Origin: an uncultured Acidobacteriota bacterium
Lineage (GTDB): Bacteria > Acidobacteriota > Thermoanaerobaculia > Multivoradales > UBA5704
DNA length: 64,000 nt
Direction of reading: 5' to 3'
Assembly: GCA_963700145.1 (NCBI GenBank)
Contig: OY969474.1
Coordinates: 736,001 to 800,000 of the forward strand
The position numbers and the translations under genes were made by a program. The notes under the pieces were generated by a model that was not told the origin of the DNA, made no database searches, and saw only the letters and a program-made list of their open reading frames with translations. Below are positions 55,740-64,000 of this stretch, in pieces (the first letter of the stretch is position 1; each line of letters opens with the position of its first letter).

Positions 55740-58163
55740 GTGAGGCTGCGGATCGATCGCTACATCGTCGCCGAGATTGCCGGTCCCCTGGCGCTCGGGT
55801 TCCTAGTCTACACGTTCATCCTGCTGCTCCGATTCCTCTTCACCTCGGCGGAGATGATCATCCGGCGGGGGCTGCCGGTGGCCACGGTCGGCCAGCTGCT
55901 GCTCACGACCCTGCCCAACATCGTCGTCCTGACGATCCCGATGTCGCTCCTCTTCGGCATCCTGATCGCCATCGGGCGGATGGCCTCCGACAGCGAGCTG
56001 ATCGCCCTGCGCTCCTGCGGCGTGAGCCTGCTCACCCTCTACCGGCCGGTGCTGGCGATCTCGGCGTTCTTCACCCTGGCCAACACGGCGCTGATGGTCT
56101 GGGCGCTCCCCTGGGGCAACTCGTCGCTGCAGCAGCTGCGGCTCGACATCCTCACCCAGACCGTCTCGCAGCAGGTGCAGCCGCGGGTCTTCTACGAGGA
56201 GTGGGACCCCTACGTGGTCTATGTCTTCGAGGTGCCGCCCGGGCAGAGCCGCTGGAAGGGCGTGTTCCTCGCCGAGTCGATCCCCTCGGCCGACGACAAC
56301 CAGATCACCACCGCCGAATGGGGCGAGGTGAAGGTCGAGGAGCAGGGCGAGCGGGTGGTGCTCCAGCTCTACAACGCCATCCGCCACAAGGTGGACCTGA
56401 GCTCTCCGGGCCGTTACGAGATCAGCCGCCACCGCCGTCTGGAGCTGGTGCTGGAGGACCAGTTCACCTCGACCCAGCGGGCCAAGGTCTCGGTCTCGAA
56501 GGGGGTGCGCGAGCTCACGCTAGCCGAGCTGCGCGACCTGCGCGACGACCCGGCGGCGTCCAGCGAGCAGCGCAACCTGGCGGAGGTCGAGATCCACAAG
56601 AAGTTCGCGATCCCGGTCGCTTGCCTGGTCTTCGGCCTCTTCGCCCTGCCGCTTGGCTTCAACAACCGGCGCGGCGGCAAGGCCTCCGGGTTCGCCCTCT
56701 CGATCGCCGTCATCGTCGTCTACTACGTCCTGCTAGCGAACGGCGAAGAGGCGGCGCGCTACGGCCGGCTCCCCGCCTGGGCGGGCATATGGGCGCCGAA
56801 CCTGATCCTGGCGGCGGCGGGGGTCTTCCTGCTGGCGCGGCGCAACCGCGACAAGGGGCTGCTGTTGAGCGGCATCGACCGCTGGCTGCGGCACAAGGTC
56901 TGGCCGGTGCTGCTGGCGGTGCCGCGACTCACCCGCCGCTGGCGGCGCCGCCGCGAGGAAGCCGGCCAGGGTCCGCCGGCGGCGCCCGCGCCGGCGACCG
57001 CTCGCGCCGCGCACCCACGGCGTGGCCGCCGAGCCGGGCTGGTCTTCCGCCTCCCCCGCCCGCGCATCACCTTCCCCAGCCTCCTCGACCGCTACGTGGC
57101 GCGGCAGTTCGCCGGAGTGTTCCTGCTCGTCGTCCTCTCGGGGGTGACTCTCTACGTCATCGCCGACCTCTCCGAGACAATCGACGAGATCCTCAAGAAC
57201 AAGGTGCCGCGCGACATGGTCTTCGACTACTACAAGTACATGTCGCTGCAGATCTTCTACGACATCGCGCCGATCGTGGTGCTGGTGACGACCCTGATCA
57301 CCTTCTCGCTGCTGTCGCGCACCAGCGAGGTCACCGCCTGCAAGGCGCTCGGCCTCTCGCTCTACCGGCTCTCGCTCCCCGCCCTCGCCTGGGCGGTCCT
57401 GATCGTCGTGCTCGCGGCCTTCCTGCAGTCCGAGGTCCTGCCCGCCTCGAACGAGCGGGTGGCGCAGCTCAAGGACCGCATCCGCGGCCGCGAGGCGGCG
57501 CGCACCTACCGCCGCGCCGATCGCCAGTGGCTCTTCGGCCAGGGCCGCTACATCTACAACTACATCCACTACGATCCGGCGCGGCAGGGCCTGCAGCGCC
57601 TGCAGGTCTTCGACTTCGACCCCGAGCACCAGCTCCGCCGGCGGTTGGTAACCGACCGCGCCACCTACGACCCGAACCGCGAGGCCTGGCTCTTCGAGAA
57701 CGGCTGGGCGCGCTCGTTCGCCGGCGTCGAGGTCACCGACTACGTCCGCTTCGAGGAGCCGCTAGTGGTCCGCTTCCCGGAGACCCCCGACTACTTCGAC
57801 TCCGAGATGCGCCCGCCGGAGCAGATGCGCTTCGGCGAGCTCAAGGACTACGTGCGGGAGCTCGAGGAGAGCGGCCAGCCGGTGCCGGAGCTGCTGGTCG
57901 AGCTGTACAACAAGATCGCCTATCCGGTGGTGTCGCTGGTGATGGCGCTGGTCGCGCTCCCGTTCGCCTTCCGCCTCGGGCGGCAGGGGGCGCTCTACGG
58001 GGTGGGGATCTCGATCGCCCTGGGGATGGCGTTCCTCGGCATCTACGCCTTCTTCACCACCCTCGGCGAGACCGGGGCGCTGCCGCCGGTGGCCGCGGTG
58101 TGGAGCCCGAGCGCCGTCTTCGCGATCCTGTCCGCCTACCTCTTCCTCGGGGTGAGGACCTAG
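55740..58163 (+). CDS. Fused LptF-LptG LPS export permease
   Basis: Two halves, each starting I/LDRY, with SDSELIAL and TSEVTACKALG motifs. Confidence 0.88.
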   Translation: MRLRIDRYIVAEIAGPLALGFLVYTFILLLRFLFTSAEMIIRRGLPVATVGQLLLTTLPNIVVLTIPMSLLFGILIAIGRMASDSELIALRSCGVSLLTLYRPVLAISAFFTLANTALMVWALPWGNSSLQQLRLDILTQTVSQQVQPRVFYEEWDPYVVYVFEVPPGQSRWKGVFLAESIPSADDNQITTAEWGEVKVEEQGERVVLQLYNAIRHKVDLSSPGRYEISRHRRLELVLEDQFTSTQRAKVSVSKGVRELTLAELRDLRDDPAASSEQRNLAEVEIHKKFAIPVACLVFGLFALPLGFNNRRGGKASGFALSIAVIVVYYVLLANGEEAARYGRLPAWAGIWAPNLILAAAGVFLLARRNRDKGLLLSGIDRWLRHKVWPVLLAVPRLTRRWRRRREEAGQGPPAAPAPATARAAHPRRGRRAGLVFRLPRPRITFPSLLDRYVARQFAGVFLLVVLSGVTLYVIADLSETIDEILKNKVPRDMVFDYYKYMSLQIFYDIAPIVVLVTTLITFSLLSRTSEVTACKALGLSLYRLSLPALAWAVLIVVLAAFLQSEVLPASNERVAQLKDRIRGREAARTYRRADRQWLFGQGRYIYNYIHYDPARQGLQRLQVFDFDPEHQLRRRLVTDRATYDPNREAWLFENGWARSFAGVEVTDYVRFEEPLVVRFPETPDYFDSEMRPPEQMRFGELKDYVRELEESGQPVPELLVELYNKIAYPVVSLVMALVALPFAFRLGRQGALYGVGISIALGMAFLGIYAFFTTLGETGALPPVAAVWSPSAVFAILSAYLFLGVRT

Positions 58164-59419
58164 AAGCGGGAGAGGTCCCGCCCGAAGAGCATCGCCTTCG
58201 CCCAGTCGAAGAGGACCTTCACCTTGTTGGCCGGCGATACCAGCTTCGTGAGATAGACCGAACGCCAGAAGAGCCAGGCGGCGCGGCCGCTCCACTTGAC
58301 GTGCGGCAGGTCGGCGAGCGCCTGGCCGGCGCCGATGTAGGCGAGCATGCCGGCCGAGCGGAAGCGGAACGGGCCGACGGGCCGGCCGCGGCGGCCGCGG
58401 TCCAACGCCTTCGCCAGGTACTCCCCCTGCTGCTGCGCCACCTGGGCGGTGGCTGGAAGCCCCAGCTCCCCCACCGCCGCGCAATCGCCCAGAGCGTAGA
58501 CCCCAGATCGTCCCGCTAGCCGCAGGTGGTCATCGACACGGATCCGTCCGCGTGGCGTCAGCGGCTCTCCGAGCGCGGCGACGAGCGGGACGGGGGCGTT
58601 CCCTCCCGCCCAGAGGACCAGGCCGGCGGGGAGGAAGCCGCCGTCGCGCAGCCGCACGCCGTCGCGCTCGACCGCCGACACCGCGGTGGCGAGGCGCACC
58701 TCGATCCCTTCGCGCTGGAAATGGCGGTGGGCGTAGGCGCCGAGCGCCGCGTCGAAGCCGCCCAGCATCCGCTCGGCCGCCTCGACCAGCACCACCCGCC
58801 CCCGCGGCGCCAGCTCGGGATAGCTCGCGGCCAGCTCGCCGGTGAGGAGGTCGTGCACCTCGGCCGCGACCTCCACGCCCGTCGCGCCGCCGCCGCAGAC
58901 GACGAAGGTCAACCGCCGCGCCACCTCCTCGTCGGAGAGCCCGGGCACCTCGGCGCGCGCGAACTGGTCGAGGATGCCGCGCCGCACCGCCCGCGCGTCC
59001 TCGACGCTCGCCAGGGTCAGCGCGTGCTCGCGCACGCCGGGAACGCCGTAGTCCGCCACCCCGGCACCCACGGCGATCGCCAGCAGGTCGAAGAGCAGGG
59101 CGAAGCGCTCCTCCCCCACCGCCGAGACGCACTCCACGCGACGCGCCTGCCAATCGACGCGCTCCGCCCGTCCCTCGATCAGCCGCACCTGCCGCAGGCG
59201 CCGGCGCACCGGCTCGAGAATGCTGCGCAACTCGACGGTGCCGGCGGCGGCCGAGGGGAGGAGAGGCGTGAAGAGGAAGTAGTTGCGCGGCGAGAGGAGC
59301 GTGACGTCGAAGCGGCCGCGCGGCAGGCGCCGCAGGAGGGAGAAGCCGGCGAAGCCCGAGCCGAGGACCAGGAGCTTCGGCGGCGCGGCGGCCGAGCTCT
59401 TGCCGCCGGCTGGATCGCT
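58160..59419 (-). CDS. ndh: Type II NADH dehydrogenase-like flavoprotein; no canonical start codon
   Basis: The frame is open upstream of 59230 and reads KLLVLGSGFAG..SPRNYFLFTPLL. Also VCGGGATGVE, ALGD, ATAQVAQQQG, FGRDLSRF. Confidence 0.85.
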   Translation of the reverse strand, partial: SDPAGGKSSAAAPPKLLVLGSGFAGFSLLRRLPRGRFDVTLLSPRNYFLFTPLLPSAAAGTVELRSILEPVRRRLRQVRLIEGRAERVDWQARRVECVSAVGEERFALLFDLLAIAVGAGVADYGVPGVREHALTLASVEDARAVRRGILDQFARAEVPGLSDEEVARRLTFVVCGGGATGVEVAAEVHDLLTGELAASYPELAPRGRVVLVEAAERMLGGFDAALGAYAHRHFQREGIEVRLATAVSAVERDGVRLRDGGFLPAGLVLWAGGNAPVPLVAALGEPLTPRGRIRVDDHLRLAGRSGVYALGDCAAVGELGLPATAQVAQQQGEYLAKALDRGRRGRPVGPFRFRSAGMLAYIGAGQALADLPHVKWSGRAAWLFWRSVYLTKLVSPANKVKVLFDWAKAMLFGRDLSRF

Positions 59420-60776
59420 AGGCGAAGCGCAGCTCCGGGTTGGCGCGCGCCCGGTTCAGGAAATCGGCGACGCTGCGCACCAGCTCCAGCCCCGCCTCCT
59501 CCATCTCCGCCGCCCGGCGGAAGACGATGAGCGCCGCCAGCGCCTCGCGGTGGATGCGGCGGGAGGTGAAGACGGGCAGCATCTCCTCGGCCAGGCGGCG
59601 GACCTGGGCGGCGCGCCCCTGCGCGGCGTAGAGGGCGGCGAGGTCCAGGCTCACGAGCGCTGCGTCGTAGTCGAGATGCTGCTCGAGGAACCCCTCGCGC
59701 GCCTCGCGATAGGCGGCCTCGGCTTGGTCCGCCCGTCCCAGCCCGTAAGCCACGGTCCCCTCCACCCAGCGCAGGCGGGTCAGCCAGACCCGGCCGCCGT
59801 GCTCGAGGTAGAGCGGCCGGGTGTGGAAGAGAAGGGCGAAGGCCTCGCGGTGCTGGCCGGTGTCGTTGAGACCGAGGATGAGGTTGTGGCGCACCGCGAG
59901 CGCCATCCGCGGGTCCTCGCGCGGGTCGAGGTGGTCGAGGGCGGCGCGCAGCAGCTCGATGGCGGTGGCGTTGTCGCCCGCCTCCCCGCAGACGCCGGCC
60001 TTCTGCGCCAGGCCGCGGCCGTAGAGGTGGCGCTGCCCGAGCTGGCGGTAGATCCCGATCACCCGGTCGAGAAGGCGCAGCGAGTCGTCGAACCGCCGCT
60101 GGTCCTTGCGCAGCGACGCCTTCCAGTCGAGCACGCGCGCGCGGTCCAGCAGGTCGCCGACCTCGCCGGTCACCAACAGCTCGGCCTGGCCGATCGCCAG
60201 CTCGGCCGCCTGCTGATTGCCGCGCACGCGGTGGGCGTTGCCGAGCGTCCCCCAACAGCGGGCGGAGAGACCGCGCAGCTCCTCGCCGTCGCCCGCCGCT
60301 TCCAGCCGCTCCACCACCTGCTGCGCCAGCTCGGCGAGCTCCACCGCCCGCTCCCCGTCCTGGAAGCAGGCCTCCTGGCTCTTGGCGAGGAGCAGCTCGC
60401 CGAGCGACCGGTTGGCGAAGCGCGTGCTGTTGCGCACCAGCATCTGCTGCCGGCTCGCCGGGTGCTGCTCCAGCTCGAGCCAGAGCTGCTCGGCGGCGGA
60501 CTGCTCGCGCTCGATCGCTCCGCGCCGGCGCTCGACGCTGCGGAAGGCGCCGTCGATGGCGCGGTCGTAGGCGGCCTCGAGCTCGGGAGACAGCGCGGCG
60601 AGCAGCGCCTCGTCCTCTTCGTCCGCGCCGGCGAAGGTGAAGATCCCCCCCGCCTCCTCCCGGCAGGCGGCGCAGCCGCTCAGCAGGTGGCGGAGCACCC
60701 GGCGCGATTCCGGCCCCGGGAGCTCGGCCCGCAGGAAACGCTCGAGCTGCTCGCGCGGCGGGTGCACGTCAGCCAT
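59418..60776 (-). CDS. Zinc-finger (HxxxCxxC-like) anti-sigma N-terminus plus TPR protein, copy 1
   Basis: HPPREQLERF...RHLLSGCAAC followed by about 350 aa of TPR-like helices. No TM segment. Overlaps the upstream ECF gene. Confidence 0.75.
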   Translation of the reverse strand: MADVHPPREQLERFLRAELPGPESRRVLRHLLSGCAACREEAGGIFTFAGADEEDEALLAALSPELEAAYDRAIDGAFRSVERRRGAIEREQSAAEQLWLELEQHPASRQQMLVRNSTRFANRSLGELLLAKSQEACFQDGERAVELAELAQQVVERLEAAGDGEELRGLSARCWGTLGNAHRVRGNQQAAELAIGQAELLVTGEVGDLLDRARVLDWKASLRKDQRRFDDSLRLLDRVIGIYRQLGQRHLYGRGLAQKAGVCGEAGDNATAIELLRAALDHLDPREDPRMALAVRHNLILGLNDTGQHREAFALLFHTRPLYLEHGGRVWLTRLRWVEGTVAYGLGRADQAEAAYREAREGFLEQHLDYDAALVSLDLAALYAAQGRAAQVRRLAEEMLPVFTSRRIHREALAALIVFRRAAEMEEAGLELVRSVADFLNRARANPELRFA

Positions 60777-61305
60777 GGCGACTCTCCTTTACGACACCTG
60801 CGGCGACGAGCTGGCGCATCAGGGCGGCCAGGCAGCGGTTGGTGATCTTGCCGATGCTGGAGGTGCGATAGCCGAGGCGTTGCGCCAGCTCCGGCGCTTC
60901 GTAGCCCTGCTGATAGCGGAGCTGCAGGAGATTGCGGCAGCGCTGCGGCAAGCGTTGGATCAGGTGCTCGATGTCGCGGCGCAGGTCGGCGTCCTCCTGG
61001 ACCAGCGCCTGCGGCCGGGCCAGCCACTCGAGCATGGCGTCGTCGACCGCGTCGTAGACCCGCCGGCGCCGGTCGCGCCAGTAGAGGAGGCACTTGTGGC
61101 GGAGCGTGCCGGCCAGCCAGGCGGCGGGATCGCGAACCTCCCCCGCGCGATGGACGAAGGCGAGCAGCGCCTGCTGCAGGAGGTCCTCGGCGTCCTCGGG
61201 GGGGATGCGGTAACGGAAGAAGACGCACTTGAGCCGCGGCCGCACCCGTTCCAGGAACAGCTCCCAGGAGGAGCCGTCTACGTGCGGTTGGTCTAGGACG
61301 CTCAT
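60769..61305 (-). CDS. ECF sigma factor, copy 1
   Basis: DAEDLLQ region 2, AWL, LPQRCRNLLQLRY..G...ELAQRLG region 4. Confidence 0.85.
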   Translation of the reverse strand: MSVLDQPHVDGSSWELFLERVRPRLKCVFFRYRIPPEDAEDLLQQALLAFVHRAGEVRDPAAWLAGTLRHKCLLYWRDRRRRVYDAVDDAMLEWLARPQALVQEDADLRRDIEHLIQRLPQRCRNLLQLRYQQGYEAPELAQRLGYRTSSIGKITNRCLAALMRQLVAAGVVKESRHG

Positions 61306-61422
61306 CGTGCCGCGCAGGGCTATAGGGTGTCTGCGAAGACACTACCACCCTGGCCGGACTCTTGTCCAGCCGCGCGGCTACCGGGCGGGAGGTTTAGCCG
61401 CTAGCCGTCGTCGGCCCCGGCG

Positions 61423-61641
61423 CTAGCGGCCGCCATTGCCGTCAATGCGGCTGCCGACCGCACTAACCACTTTCGTGAAGCGCGTCCAGATCTCCTGCAG
61501 GAGGCCGTGGGTGGCCACGAAGCGCCCCTGCACCGGGTCGCTGTCCCGCCACCGGGCCGCCTGCGCGGGTCCGGCGGCGAGCAGTGAGACGGCGGCGGTG
61601 AGGGCGAATGCGGCGAAGCCGCGGCGCAGTCTGCTCGTCAT
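61423..61641 (-). CDS. Small secreted peptide 1 (72 aa), C-terminal GSRIDGNGGR
   Basis: GAAGGAG RBS, basic N-terminus, hydrophobic core, AQA cleavage motif. Confidence 0.7.
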   Translation of the reverse strand: MTSRLRRGFAAFALTAAVSLLAAGPAQAARWRDSDPVQGRFVATHGLLQEIWTRFTKVVSAVGSRIDGNGGR

Positions 61642-61809
61642 GTCTCTTTCTCCTTCGTTTGCAAGCATTAACGTAAATCCGCCAGGGTTCGGCGGAAGTT
61701 CCCTCTCCCTCAACATGAGTTGCCGATGGTAGGGCTGCGGAGGACAAGGCCGCCCCCTTTTCTGCGGGCGGCGGCCTGGAAGAACGGCCGAAGGGCTGCC
61801 GGCGGGGGG

Positions 61810-63156
61810 CTAGCCGGCGTCGCGGAGCTTCAACCCCGCCTGCACGCGGGTGCGGCAGAGCAGGTCGCCTACCTCGCGCACCAGGCCGACGGTCACCCGC
61901 TCCCGCACCGCGGCGCGTTGCAGGACCGTGAGCGCGACGAGCGCCTCGCGCTGGACGTCGCGCGCCGCGAAGAGCGGCAGGATCTCCTCGGCCATGTGCC
62001 GGACCTCGCCGGTCCGCCCCTGCTTGAGGTAGACCTCGATGAGGTCGAGGGACACGAGGCCGACGTCGTATCCCAGGTCGCGGGCCAGCATCTGCTCCCG
62101 CACCGCCAGGAGCCCGGCCTCCGCCTCCTCCAGCCGGCCGGCGCCGCGGGCGAGCTTCGCCTCCAGCCAGCCGACGCGCAGCCGCCCGAGCCGGTCCTCG
62201 AAGCGGTCGTAGAGGGGCCGGGCGCTCTCGAAGGCGGCCGTGGCTTCCTCCAACCGCCCGCTCTCGACGAGGTAGTGGATCAGGTTGTGATGGCCGGCGA
62301 CCACCAGGCGGAACTCGGCCGCGGGATCGCTGAGCTCGAGGCCGCGACGCAGGGTCTCGATCGCCCCGGCGGCGTCCCCGGAGTGGCCGAGGAAGACCCC
62401 CTTGCCGATCAAGCCCTTGCCCGCGAGGTGCCGGTCGCCCGCCCGCCGCGCCAGGGCCACGCCGCGGTCGAGGAGGCGGAAAGCCTCGGCGAAACGACGC
62501 TGGTCGCCGAGCAGCGAGGCCTTCGACAGCAGCAGCGTCGCCTTCTCGAGCGGGTCGCCCGTGCCTTGGCGCAGCAGCCGCTCGGCGCGGAGGAAGGCCG
62601 CGGTGGCGTCGCGGAAGTGGGAGCGGATGCGGCGCGCCGTGCCGAGAGCGGTCCAGGCGCGCGCCATCAAGTCGTGTGTCCGCTCGGAGCCGTACGCGGC
62701 GGCGTCGAGCTTCGCGGTCGCCGTCACCGCCAGCTCGGCCAGCTCCACCGCGCGCCCCGCGTCGTGGAAGCCGGCTTCCTGGGCCGCTTCGATCAGCCGC
62801 GCGCAGAACGACCAGGTGCGGTAGCGGGCGCTCTGCCCCACCAGCATCCGCTGCCGCTCGAAGGGGTGAGTGGCGAGGCCGTCGAGCAACTCCCCCGCCG
62901 CCGCCTGCTCCTCGGCGATCTCGAGCTGGCGCGCCATGACCGCGCGCTCGGCGCGCACGAAGGCGTCGTCGTAGTCGGCCATCCGGGGGCGCCGGGCACC
63001 CGGCGCCGCGGCGGGCGGGAAGAGCGCCGCCGCCACCTCGGCACAGGCGGAGCAACCGCGCAGCAGGTGGCGGATGAGGGCGCGGACTTCCGATCGCGGC
63101 AGCTCGACACGCCCGAGCTGCAGCAGCGTCGCCCGCTCAGGATGGCTTCGACTCAT
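61810..63156 (-). CDS. Zinc-finger anti-sigma N-terminus plus TPR protein, copy 2
   Basis: HPERATL...RHLLRGCSAC. Paralogous to copy 1 (HP..RQ.MLV, HNLI, YD..LVSLDL, REAL.AL). Confidence 0.75.
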   Translation of the reverse strand: MSRSHPERATLLQLGRVELPRSEVRALIRHLLRGCSACAEVAAALFPPAAAPGARRPRMADYDDAFVRAERAVMARQLEIAEEQAAAGELLDGLATHPFERQRMLVGQSARYRTWSFCARLIEAAQEAGFHDAGRAVELAELAVTATAKLDAAAYGSERTHDLMARAWTALGTARRIRSHFRDATAAFLRAERLLRQGTGDPLEKATLLLSKASLLGDQRRFAEAFRLLDRGVALARRAGDRHLAGKGLIGKGVFLGHSGDAAGAIETLRRGLELSDPAAEFRLVVAGHHNLIHYLVESGRLEEATAAFESARPLYDRFEDRLGRLRVGWLEAKLARGAGRLEEAEAGLLAVREQMLARDLGYDVGLVSLDLIEVYLKQGRTGEVRHMAEEILPLFAARDVQREALVALTVLQRAAVRERVTVGLVREVGDLLCRTRVQAGLKLRDAG

Positions 63157-63682
63157 GCTCCGACTCCTTGTGGAAGCCCACCGCCAGCAGCTGGCGGGTG
63201 AGCGCCGCGAGACAGCGGTTGGTGACCTTGCGAATGCTCGACGAGCGGTAGCCCATCTGCTCCGCCACTTCGTTGGGGCCGTAGCCGAGGCCGTAGCGCA
63301 GGCGCAGCAGCGAGCGGCAGCGCGAGGAGAGGCGGCTCAGCACACGGTTGAGGTCGGAGCTCAGGTCCGCCCGCTCTTGCGGCGGCGCCTGCGGCGTCGA
63401 GATCAGCTCGAGGATCGCCGTGTCCACCGCGTCGCAGAGGCTGCCGCGGCGCTTGCGCCAATACATGATGCACTTCTTCTTGACCGTGCCGATCAGCCAG
63501 CTCTCGGGGCTGCGCACCGTGTCCCACTTGTAGATCAGGGTGAGCTGGGCGTCCTGGAGGATGTCCTCGGCGTCCTCCGGCGGCACCTCGAAGTGCCGGA
63601 GCACCCGCTCGAGTCGCGGCCGCGAGTCCGTCAGCAGCTTGTTGAGCGATTCCCGGAGTTCGGGTTGATCCAGCGTCGCCAT
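63137..63682 (-). CDS. ECF sigma factor, copy 2
   Basis: PPEDAEDILQ, SWLIGT..KCIMYWR, RCRSLLRLRY, GYRSSSIRKVTNRCLAAL. GAAGGGA RBS. Confidence 0.85.
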   Translation of the reverse strand: MATLDQPELRESLNKLLTDSRPRLERVLRHFEVPPEDAEDILQDAQLTLIYKWDTVRSPESWLIGTVKKKCIMYWRKRRGSLCDAVDTAILELISTPQAPPQERADLSSDLNRVLSRLSSRCRSLLRLRYGLGYGPNEVAEQMGYRSSSIRKVTNRCLAALTRQLLAVGFHKESEHESKPS

Positions 63683-63795
63683 GTCCCTTCGGTCCCCCCG
63701 GCCGGCTGGGGCTTGATAGGCTAGCACCCGCTTCGCTCCCTTGTCCAGTTGGACTCGTAGTTGCGCGACGGCCATGACGCGCCGCCACGCGCGAC

Positions 63796-63978
63796 CTACA
63801 GACAGCCGCCCCAGGGGTCGAGCGTGCAGCCGCTCGGCGGCGGCGGATCGAACTGCGACGCCGCCGTCGTGGACCGGGTCGGGCCGGAGCTGTCGCCGAC
63901 CGAGAGGAGCTCGAGCAGGGCGAGCAGCCAGGGGAGGAGGAACAGGGCGAGGGGCCGGCGGAAAGACCTCAGGGTCAT
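63796..63978 (-). CDS. Small secreted/membrane peptide 2 (about 60 aa), C-terminal GCTLDPWGGCL
   Basis: AGGAG RBS, basic N-terminus and Leu-rich hydrophobic core. The alternative start is 63984. Confidence 0.65.
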   Translation of the reverse strand: MTLRSFRRPLALFLLPWLLALLELLSVGDSSGPTRSTTAASQFDPPPPSGCTLDPWGGCL

Positions 63979-64000
63979 CACCATCTCCTAAAGAAGTCGA

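Follow-up and report, generated by a model that had tools for sequence, protein, structure and literature searches.

Known peptide receptors and the two-unit locus

Intracellular peptide signalling of the RRNPP type is so far described mainly in Gram-positive Firmicutes; the introduction of PMC10075063, as far as its accessible text goes, links quorum sensing by peptides with Bacillota and quorum sensing by small molecules with Pseudomonadota and Actinomycetota, and the same text gives a five-criterion signature (propeptide of 10–100 aa, Sec-dependent export, cytoplasmic tetratricopeptide repeat (TPR) receptor of 250–500 aa, neighbours at −60 to 400 bp). Control of a sigma factor of the extracytoplasmic function (ECF) type by a zinc anti-sigma domain followed by TPRs is described for DdvA-DdvS of Myxococcus xanthus (PDB 8rlz), where DdvA is, in the accessible part of PMC11506125, a single-pass protein whose TPR-CHAT protease domain lies in the periplasm and whose zinc ligands are CHCC. 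ChrR, RslA and RsiW (PDB 2q1z, 3hug, 5wuq) carry a three-helix N-terminal His/Cys zinc domain and are encoded just downstream of the sigma gene. Here two adjacent peptide–ECF–TPR units are described in a stretch of 64,000 nt (the window) from a 5.46 Mb genome (G000, the source genome) of the Thermoanaerobaculia (Acidobacteriota). The pairing of peptide and TPR as ligand and receptor is well supported by computation, and we consider it probable that exported peptide cores bind the groove of the neighbouring TPR and that a zinc anti-sigma (ZAS)-like domain then releases an ECF sigma factor, which would be RRNPP-like signalling with an anti-sigma output in a lineage that is presumably diderm. The type of intracellular signalling is known, but host, output domain and core are new. 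No published description of the peptide–TPR system was found in a literature search with subscription journals largely outside its reach, and the accessible text of the ECF classification PMC7826278 holds no matching group; its supplements could hold these ECFs.

The genes lie on the minus strand in the order peptide 2, ECF2, TPR2, peptide 1, ECF1, TPR1:

63796-63984, minus strand: precursor of peptide 2, 62 aa, or 60 aa when read from the ATG at 63978, with the C-terminus SGCTLDPWGGCL
63137..63682, minus strand: ECF2, ECF sigma factor of 181 aa with Sigma70_r2 and r4
61810..63156, minus strand: TPR2, soluble, 448 aa, with N-terminal zinc anti-sigma-like domain and TPR solenoid
61423-61641, minus strand: precursor of peptide 1, 72 aa when read from the ATG at 61641, with the C-terminus VGSRIDGNGGR
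60769..61305, minus strand: ECF1, ECF sigma factor of 178 aa
59418..60776, minus strand: TPR1, 452 aa, with N-terminal HHCC zinc anti-sigma-like domain and TPR solenoid

Peptide 2 is the first gene of a peptide–ECF2–TPR2 unit, and the stop of each ECF gene overlaps the start of the TPR gene behind it (ECF2 with TPR2, ECF1 with TPR1). Peptide 1 lies 169 nt downstream of TPR2, with a sequence resembling a ribosome-binding site, GAAGGAGA, upstream of its ATG. ECF1 and ECF2 are 51% identical; orthologs of ECF2 within the same family are 80–86% identical. This central locus is conserved in relatives, where peptide A, ECF and TPR are followed, often after an additional ECF, by peptide B, ECF and TPR, and DGNG is mostly kept in peptide 1 orthologs. 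Peptide 1 is built from a signal-peptide-like N-terminus with an AQA site, an amphipathic Trp helix and the core G-S-R-I-D-G-N-G; peptide 2 from a basic N-terminus, a hydrophobic stretch, a Ser/Thr/Pro linker and the core G-C-T-L-D-P-W-G, an atypical short precursor with no separate amphipathic Trp helix. Export of both is predicted from hydropathy (KD12 2.16 and 2.54), and neither peptide matched a Pfam or NCBIfam family. Soil RNA covered small shares of the stretch in four runs of one study, with contigs spanning parts of both peptide genes; as coverage without a silent-stretch control, this is not evidence of expression.

Judged from sequence, the system would match the five RRNPP features in the accessible text of PMC10075063 or come close to them: the window peptides have 72 and 62 aa, TPR1 and TPR2 (452 and 448 aa) have no transmembrane-like segment, TPR1 has an AlphaFold2 (AF2) solenoid, and most orphan peptide–TPR pairs lie within the neighbour distance, while the window pairs have an ECF gene between them. 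Likeness to the RRNPP systems as that text presents them (Rap-Phr, NprR-NprX, PlcR-PapR and AimR-AimP, all of Bacillota) extends to the precursor, which is small and runs from a basic N-terminus through a hydrophobic region to a C-terminal core, to neighbouring genes, duplication of the core inside a gene, the presence of many pairs in one genome and the existence of helix-turn-helix (HTH)-TPR and non-HTH versions; among bacterial proteins, Rap and NprR match the fold best (Z about 22). Unlike RRNPP systems, the host belongs to the Thermoanaerobaculia, the output would run through a zinc anti-sigma domain directed at ECF sigmas, the core is turn-like (D-P-N-G) and often closed by a putative disulfide loop, the precursors exceed those of RRNPP in length (median 94 aa) and include an amphipathic Trp helix, and a single genome can have about 60 receptor matches; common descent with RRNPP is not established. 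With DdvA the window TPRs share the zinc anti-sigma domain followed by TPRs and, by prediction, the control of an ECF sigma, and DdvA is the best sequence match of the TPR N-terminal profile (E 1.6e-5); unlike DdvA (as given in the accessible part of PMC11506125), they lack a transmembrane segment and any CHAT match, their zinc site is HHCC and each comes with a peptide gene of its own. From ChrR, RslA and RsiW, which they resemble in the zinc domain and gene order, they differ in that the sensor is a peptide-paired TPR solenoid and not a cupin or membrane domain.

Tail motif and precursor family

A preliminary description of the window had proposed that two otherwise unrelated small open reading frames (ORFs) share a C-terminal motif ending in G-G. 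Both ORFs are present as described, and the middle parts cannot be aligned (global alignment, with a score of 23, leaves the tails out of register); the final G-G is not conserved, and the conserved part stops at D-[PG]-x-G. Family members follow the core consensus G-x-x-[ILMV]-D-[PG]-x-G, with [ND] at the last x in its stricter form. All stop-to-stop ORFs of at least 30 aa in the source genome were searched with G..[ILM]D[PG][NWD]G, a pattern built solely from the two window tails, at no more than 8 aa from the stop. Four ORF ends matched, all of them upstream of a TPR paralog at a distance of 1.2 kb or less, including both hits outside the window (2/2; background fraction 0.0021; P about 5e-6), and shuffled tails gave a mean of 0.25 hits; with the pattern loosened afterwards, 8 of 11 matches lay upstream of a TPR paralog. 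The matches outnumber those of the shuffled control and all lie near TPR genes, and chance origin of the shared tail was rejected by this test.

A precursor set of 91 (85 candidates, minus 4 false hits removed by eye, plus 10 from the source genome) contained 132 cores, 112 of which were distinct as 8-mers. The idea of a precursor with a C-terminal core was supported in that 34/91 precursors carry 2–4 core copies; the final Gly of the core is the last residue in 31/91. Gly at position −4, not demanded by the pattern, was found in 106/132 cores, and positions −6 and −5 are often acidic. Copies inside one precursor agree at 3.4 of 6 variable positions, compared with 1.4 between precursors. Among 190 family precursors the median length is 94 aa (130 have 100 aa or fewer) and 137 have an A-x-A site; a Trp-bearing amphipathic middle segment was present in 161/174.

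Since multi-core precursors are typical of some ribosomally synthesised and post-translationally modified peptides (RiPPs) and Asp-Pro is a known autocleavage bond, the peptides might also be RiPP precursors or carriers of sorting or self-cleavage tags, with incidental TPR neighbours. We regard this as scarcely credible: the commonest recurrent flanking families in 237 loci are XRE-HTH regulators, no modifying enzyme was recognised in 15 representatives from the 16 largest flanking clusters (flanks of 0.9–1.9 kb), Asp-Gly variants of the core exist, and core residues co-vary with TPR groove residues, a finding by which the RiPP or tag reading is largely refuted.

A disulfide loop in Cys-bearing members, likewise suggested earlier, gained support, as a core Cys goes with a second Cys: one lies within 8 residues past the core in 32/34 Cys cores and 3/98 others (kinship uncorrected), and in held-out loci core and partner Cys go together in 55/63 against 4/107 (kinship uncorrected). 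The second Cys of peptide 2 is two residues past the core, and this pair likely forms a disulfide loop. Because the distance between the paired Cys varies, a single constant beta-hairpin register was rejected.

Co-variation of cores and receptor grooves

Co-variation was scanned over 275 receptor columns, with signal-peptide positions as controls, in a discovery set of 73 pairs (53 representatives; three pairs removed by eye beforehand) and a held-out set of 8 genomes (63 representatives; one pair common to discovery and one pair removed by eye); residue associations were counted over 150 pairs. In discovery, receptor column 301 ranked first for peptide position −3 and column 258 second for position +2; in the held-out set both ranked first of the 275 columns (z 7.0 and 10.0; control maximum 4.7). 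Columns 258 and 301 are groove-facing helix-A positions of the TPR (6 and 9 in the numbering of TPR structures). Lys258 occurred with Asp(+2) in 24/32 against 4/118 pairs and Trp301 with Gly(−3) in 22/28 against 7/122, the K/D and W/G classes having been named after the combined table had been viewed. On a contrast tree built without groove columns, the Lys258/Asp(+2) pairing gave 19 independent contrasts, 15.3 in agreement and 0.1 opposed (median p 6e-5; p 0.008 in the held-out set by itself), and the Trp301/Gly(−3) pairing 11 of 15 contrasts (p 1e-3; held-out p 0.016; not significant in discovery alone); Asp301 went with Ser/Thr(−3) in 17/22 against 18/128 (p 0.008). Crossed controls for the co-variation were not significant, and pairs 265/−2 and 225/−5 had no or marginal support. 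The pairings Lys-Asp, Trp-Gly and Asp-Ser/Thr are chemically complementary, and 28–30 specificity changes were placed on the tree. The expectation that variable tail positions set specificity is supported for −3 and +2, which co-vary with receptor groove residues.

In the window, TPR2 has Ile257, a class found with Pro(+1) in 104/104 representatives, and Gly258 opposite Trp(+2) of peptide 2; TPR1 has Ala257, and a small or polar residue at 257 goes with Gly(+1) in 6/6 against 0/144, from 2 contrasts and with window-clade pairs assigned by gene order. The residue classes at 257 and 258 therefore support a pairing in which peptide 2 likely belongs to TPR2 and peptide 1 to TPR1. Complex prediction for TPR2 with the C-terminal 32 aa of peptide 2 scored 0.51 against 0.01 for the best control and was graded weak. 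In calibration the mark was reached by 116/157 solved complexes and 2/215 mismatches, with scores of 0.60 or less at that mark for 18/157 solved complexes plus both mismatches; the runs shared at least 49% of contacts, the partner predicted local distance difference test (pLDDT) was at least 39, and likeness to solved TPR–peptide complexes may contribute to the score.

Proposed sigma factor release, candidate regulon and distribution

The AF2 model of TPR1 (pLDDT 93) consists of a small N-terminal domain with three helices, a long helix and a TPR solenoid, with TPR_12 above cut-off in both TPR1 and TPR2 and no transmembrane-like segment in either (maximum KD19 1.04 and 1.15). Residues N180, R183, H297, N298, R334, W337 and D378 of the TPR1 solenoid are conserved. 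The best structural matches of TPR1 are peptide-binding TPRs, the bacterial ones being RapJ-CSF (4gyo; Z 22.3, rmsd 4.4, 297 aligned), followed by a phage Rap (Z 22.1) and NprR (Z 21.7); RapJ was also matched at E 2.5e-8, with LGN, designed TPRs and APPBP2 scoring higher. At the N-terminus the zinc-ligand set H5, H30, C35 and C38 (spacing H-x4-C-x2-C) is 82–85% conserved in a 93-row alignment, TPR2 has H..H-x4-C-x2-C, and the profile matched the anti-sigma domains of DdvA, ChrR and RslA (E 1.6e-5 to 1e-3). A Foldseek search with the isolated domain gave no match at E<=0.001; anti-sigmas nonetheless ranked 1–9. The TPR N-terminus is a zinc anti-sigma-like domain that likely holds an ECF sigma.

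The peptide might instead bind the TPR with the opposite sign or another output, by stabilising sigma sequestration or with the ZAS-like domain acting as a sigma co-activator. Most TPR paralogs are without an adjacent ECF (the source genome has 14 full-length TPR paralogs, yet 4 close ECF paralogs), the Cys motif is lost in some TPRs, the spacing is H-x4-C-x2-C as given above and Pfam zf-HC2 matches 4/93 members, all of which would fit this alternative. We nevertheless hold it to be improbable, as class I anti-sigma domains rank first in profile and fold searches (fold E-values weak) and the ECF and TPR genes overlap, as is usual for sigma/anti-sigma pairs.

A spaced-motif search upstream of 85 peptide genes returned TGTCCCG-N16-GCAC, and the copy belonging to peptide 2 lies about 60 nt past the window end:

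G000:C1:800033-800060, minus strand: ECF-type promoter motif TGTCCCG-N16-GCACT of peptide 2

The motif precedes all 10 peptide-2-position orthologs chosen as seeds, 77–96 nt before the start. The strict form TGTC[CA]CG-N16-[GA]CAC[TC] occurs 18 times in the source genome, compared with 0–4 at 13 other spacers, and 4–23 times compared with 0–5 in 19 genomes of the family; most TPR-poor genomes have it at close to background frequency. Of the 18 ORFs downstream of the strict pattern, about 9 look secreted by hydropathy (given without genome background). Among 14 downstream proteins picked from the strict and position weight matrix lists, 6 have Pfam families, including subtilase, M36 protease, non-ribosomal peptide synthetase (NRPS) and a P-domain protein, and 8 have none. 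The leading candidate for the sigma factor that reads the motif is ECF2, since the motif stands at the head of the unit to which ECF2 belongs.

Under the proposal of ligand-induced sigma release, the precursor would be exported by Sec and trimmed to a signal of roughly 8–11 residues, with a disulfide loop in Cys members; the core would be re-imported, perhaps by an Opp/Dpp-type ABC locus, and bind the TPR groove, upon which the ZAS domain would let go of the ECF sigma. The freed ECF would transcribe the peptide 2–ECF2–TPR2 unit as positive feedback and also switch on secreted-enzyme genes, and many orphan peptide–TPR pairs would likely converge on few ECF sigmas; Rap-Phr pairs also converge on shared targets. 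We infer both the sign of regulation and the action between cells. The source genome has three SBP_bac_5 genes, one with two permeases (an inner-membrane locus of Opp/Dpp type; import predicted). One SBP_bac_5 gene (L155:12716-14311; G000:C1 about 1860700-1862300) lies ~2 kb from one peptide–TPR pair and ~8 kb from another.

The same ligand–receptor pair could also act within a single cell, with processing in the periplasm or at the membrane and re-import into the cell of origin, as a timer or a sensor of secretion or envelope state and not of density. The outer membrane of a presumably diderm host would retain peptides, the amphipathic Trp segment could anchor precursors at the membrane, the candidate regulon has many secreted proteins, and the SBP_bac_5 and permease locus is at the inner membrane. 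Such a cell-autonomous role is in our view unlikely, in that dozens of pairs per genome, the diversity of cores, their multiplication and repeated switches of specificity fit signals between cells better.

Several results weigh against sigma release by exchanged peptides. Peptides would have to pass the outer membrane of this presumably diderm lineage; peptide 2 has no A-x-A (classic signal-peptidase) site, and an ECF gene separates each window peptide from its assigned TPR (about 625–650 nt). A Mantel test over 73 pairs found core similarity unrelated to overall receptor similarity (rho 0.007), the enrichment of groove positions taken together is weak (held-out p 0.056–0.74 per position), the discovery pair A294/−1 failed to replicate, and the naming of the K/D and W/G classes after the event belongs here too. 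The eukaryotic TPRs of LGN and APPBP2 outscore Rap in fold (Z up to 24.9; LGN 24.9), so that the TPR fold alone is generic. No peptide was detected for 61/159 held-out TPRs, a strong promoter match stood at 8/97 held-out orphan peptide genes (wrong spacer 2; shuffles 1%), and G025, a genome without a TPR match, still has 4 motif sites compared with 1.

A motif peptide is encoded upstream of 12 of the 14 full-length TPR paralogs in the source genome; of the remaining two, one has a run-on peptide-like ORF and one has no peptide. Across the 8 held-out genomes a motif peptide lies within 450 nt of 98/159 TPRs. The TPR family is present in 29/31 related genomes, with 33 matches in G006 and 61 in G010; close relatives are labelled Thermoanaerobaculia and have tens of TPR paralogs each. 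The family profile at E<=1e-40 matched 9 of 201 genomes of the phylum, all of the same class, in a survey that scored 8 candidates per genome, and a search of 1.84 billion representatives gave 6136 proteins at E<=1e-30, part of them, in undefined share, generic TPRs. Two further ECF paralogs of the source genome (L131:2644-3162 and L132:2867-3406) are one solitary and one divergent from a peptide–TPR pair. In one subfamily an XRE-HTH replaces the ZAS domain at the TPR N-terminus (HTH_3 at E<0.01 in 11 of 12 scanned), with the peptide gene often on the opposite strand and, at L037, L038, L049, L050, L052, L060, L067, L079, L091 and L100, often flanked by two TPR genes; this version was absent from the 14 full-length TPR paralogs of the source genome. 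HTH-bearing TPR receptors are also represented by PlcR and NprR. Small XRE-HTH regulators are the commonest flanking family of orphan pairs (clusters of 18, 9, 4 and 3 loci; L297, L209, L086, L177, L236, L208 and others).

Taken further, Thermoanaerobaculia would possess a complete network of quorum sensing by peptides that is independent of RRNPP or has diverged deeply from it, with up to dozens of pairs per genome, a residue code (Lys-Asp, Trp-Gly) and soluble anti-sigma domains converging on few ECF sigmas for secreted proteases and NRPS, while a sister order would have related receptors and a different peptide code; we see the case for this wider picture as evenly poised. If true, intracellular peptide signalling extends to a diderm soil lineage, with a new mode of ECF sigma control. 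Roughly 150 natural pairs with a residue-level code would lend themselves to direct swap tests and perhaps to a library of sigma switches that are peptide-inducible and orthogonal, and the candidate regulon suggests how silent genes for NRPS and proteases might be activated in this under-cultured lineage.

Some smaller features were recorded. The run-on ORF (L134:144-1571; G000:C1 about 4274660-4274900) has a signal part and a core start with no final Gly or stop, likely from a frameshift or assembly error. Both window ECF genes have a common upstream element, CTGGACAAG-N11/12-GGGTG[GC]TAG (61341-61369 and 63716-63748, minus strand), between peptide stop and ECF start, which may be an internal promoter; a sigma-70 scan of 59200-64000 called no promoter, this element included. 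The NDH-2-like gene after TPR1 (58160-59455, minus strand) has an open frame that starts inside the TPR1 3' end and an N-terminal GSGFAG motif that precedes the first in-frame ATG, GTG or TTG, so that its start is possibly non-standard, lost or affected by an assembly error. Elsewhere in the class, in a different order, distant ZAS-TPR and ECF relatives adjoin similarly built precursors with another tail, L-[DE]-[DE]-x-x-x-x-P-[KR]-P, and likely form a sister system with its own peptide code:

L142:1290-1484: other-order precursor
L149:2851-3156: other-order precursor
L150:1166-1447: other-order precursor
L154:1216-1461: other-order precursor

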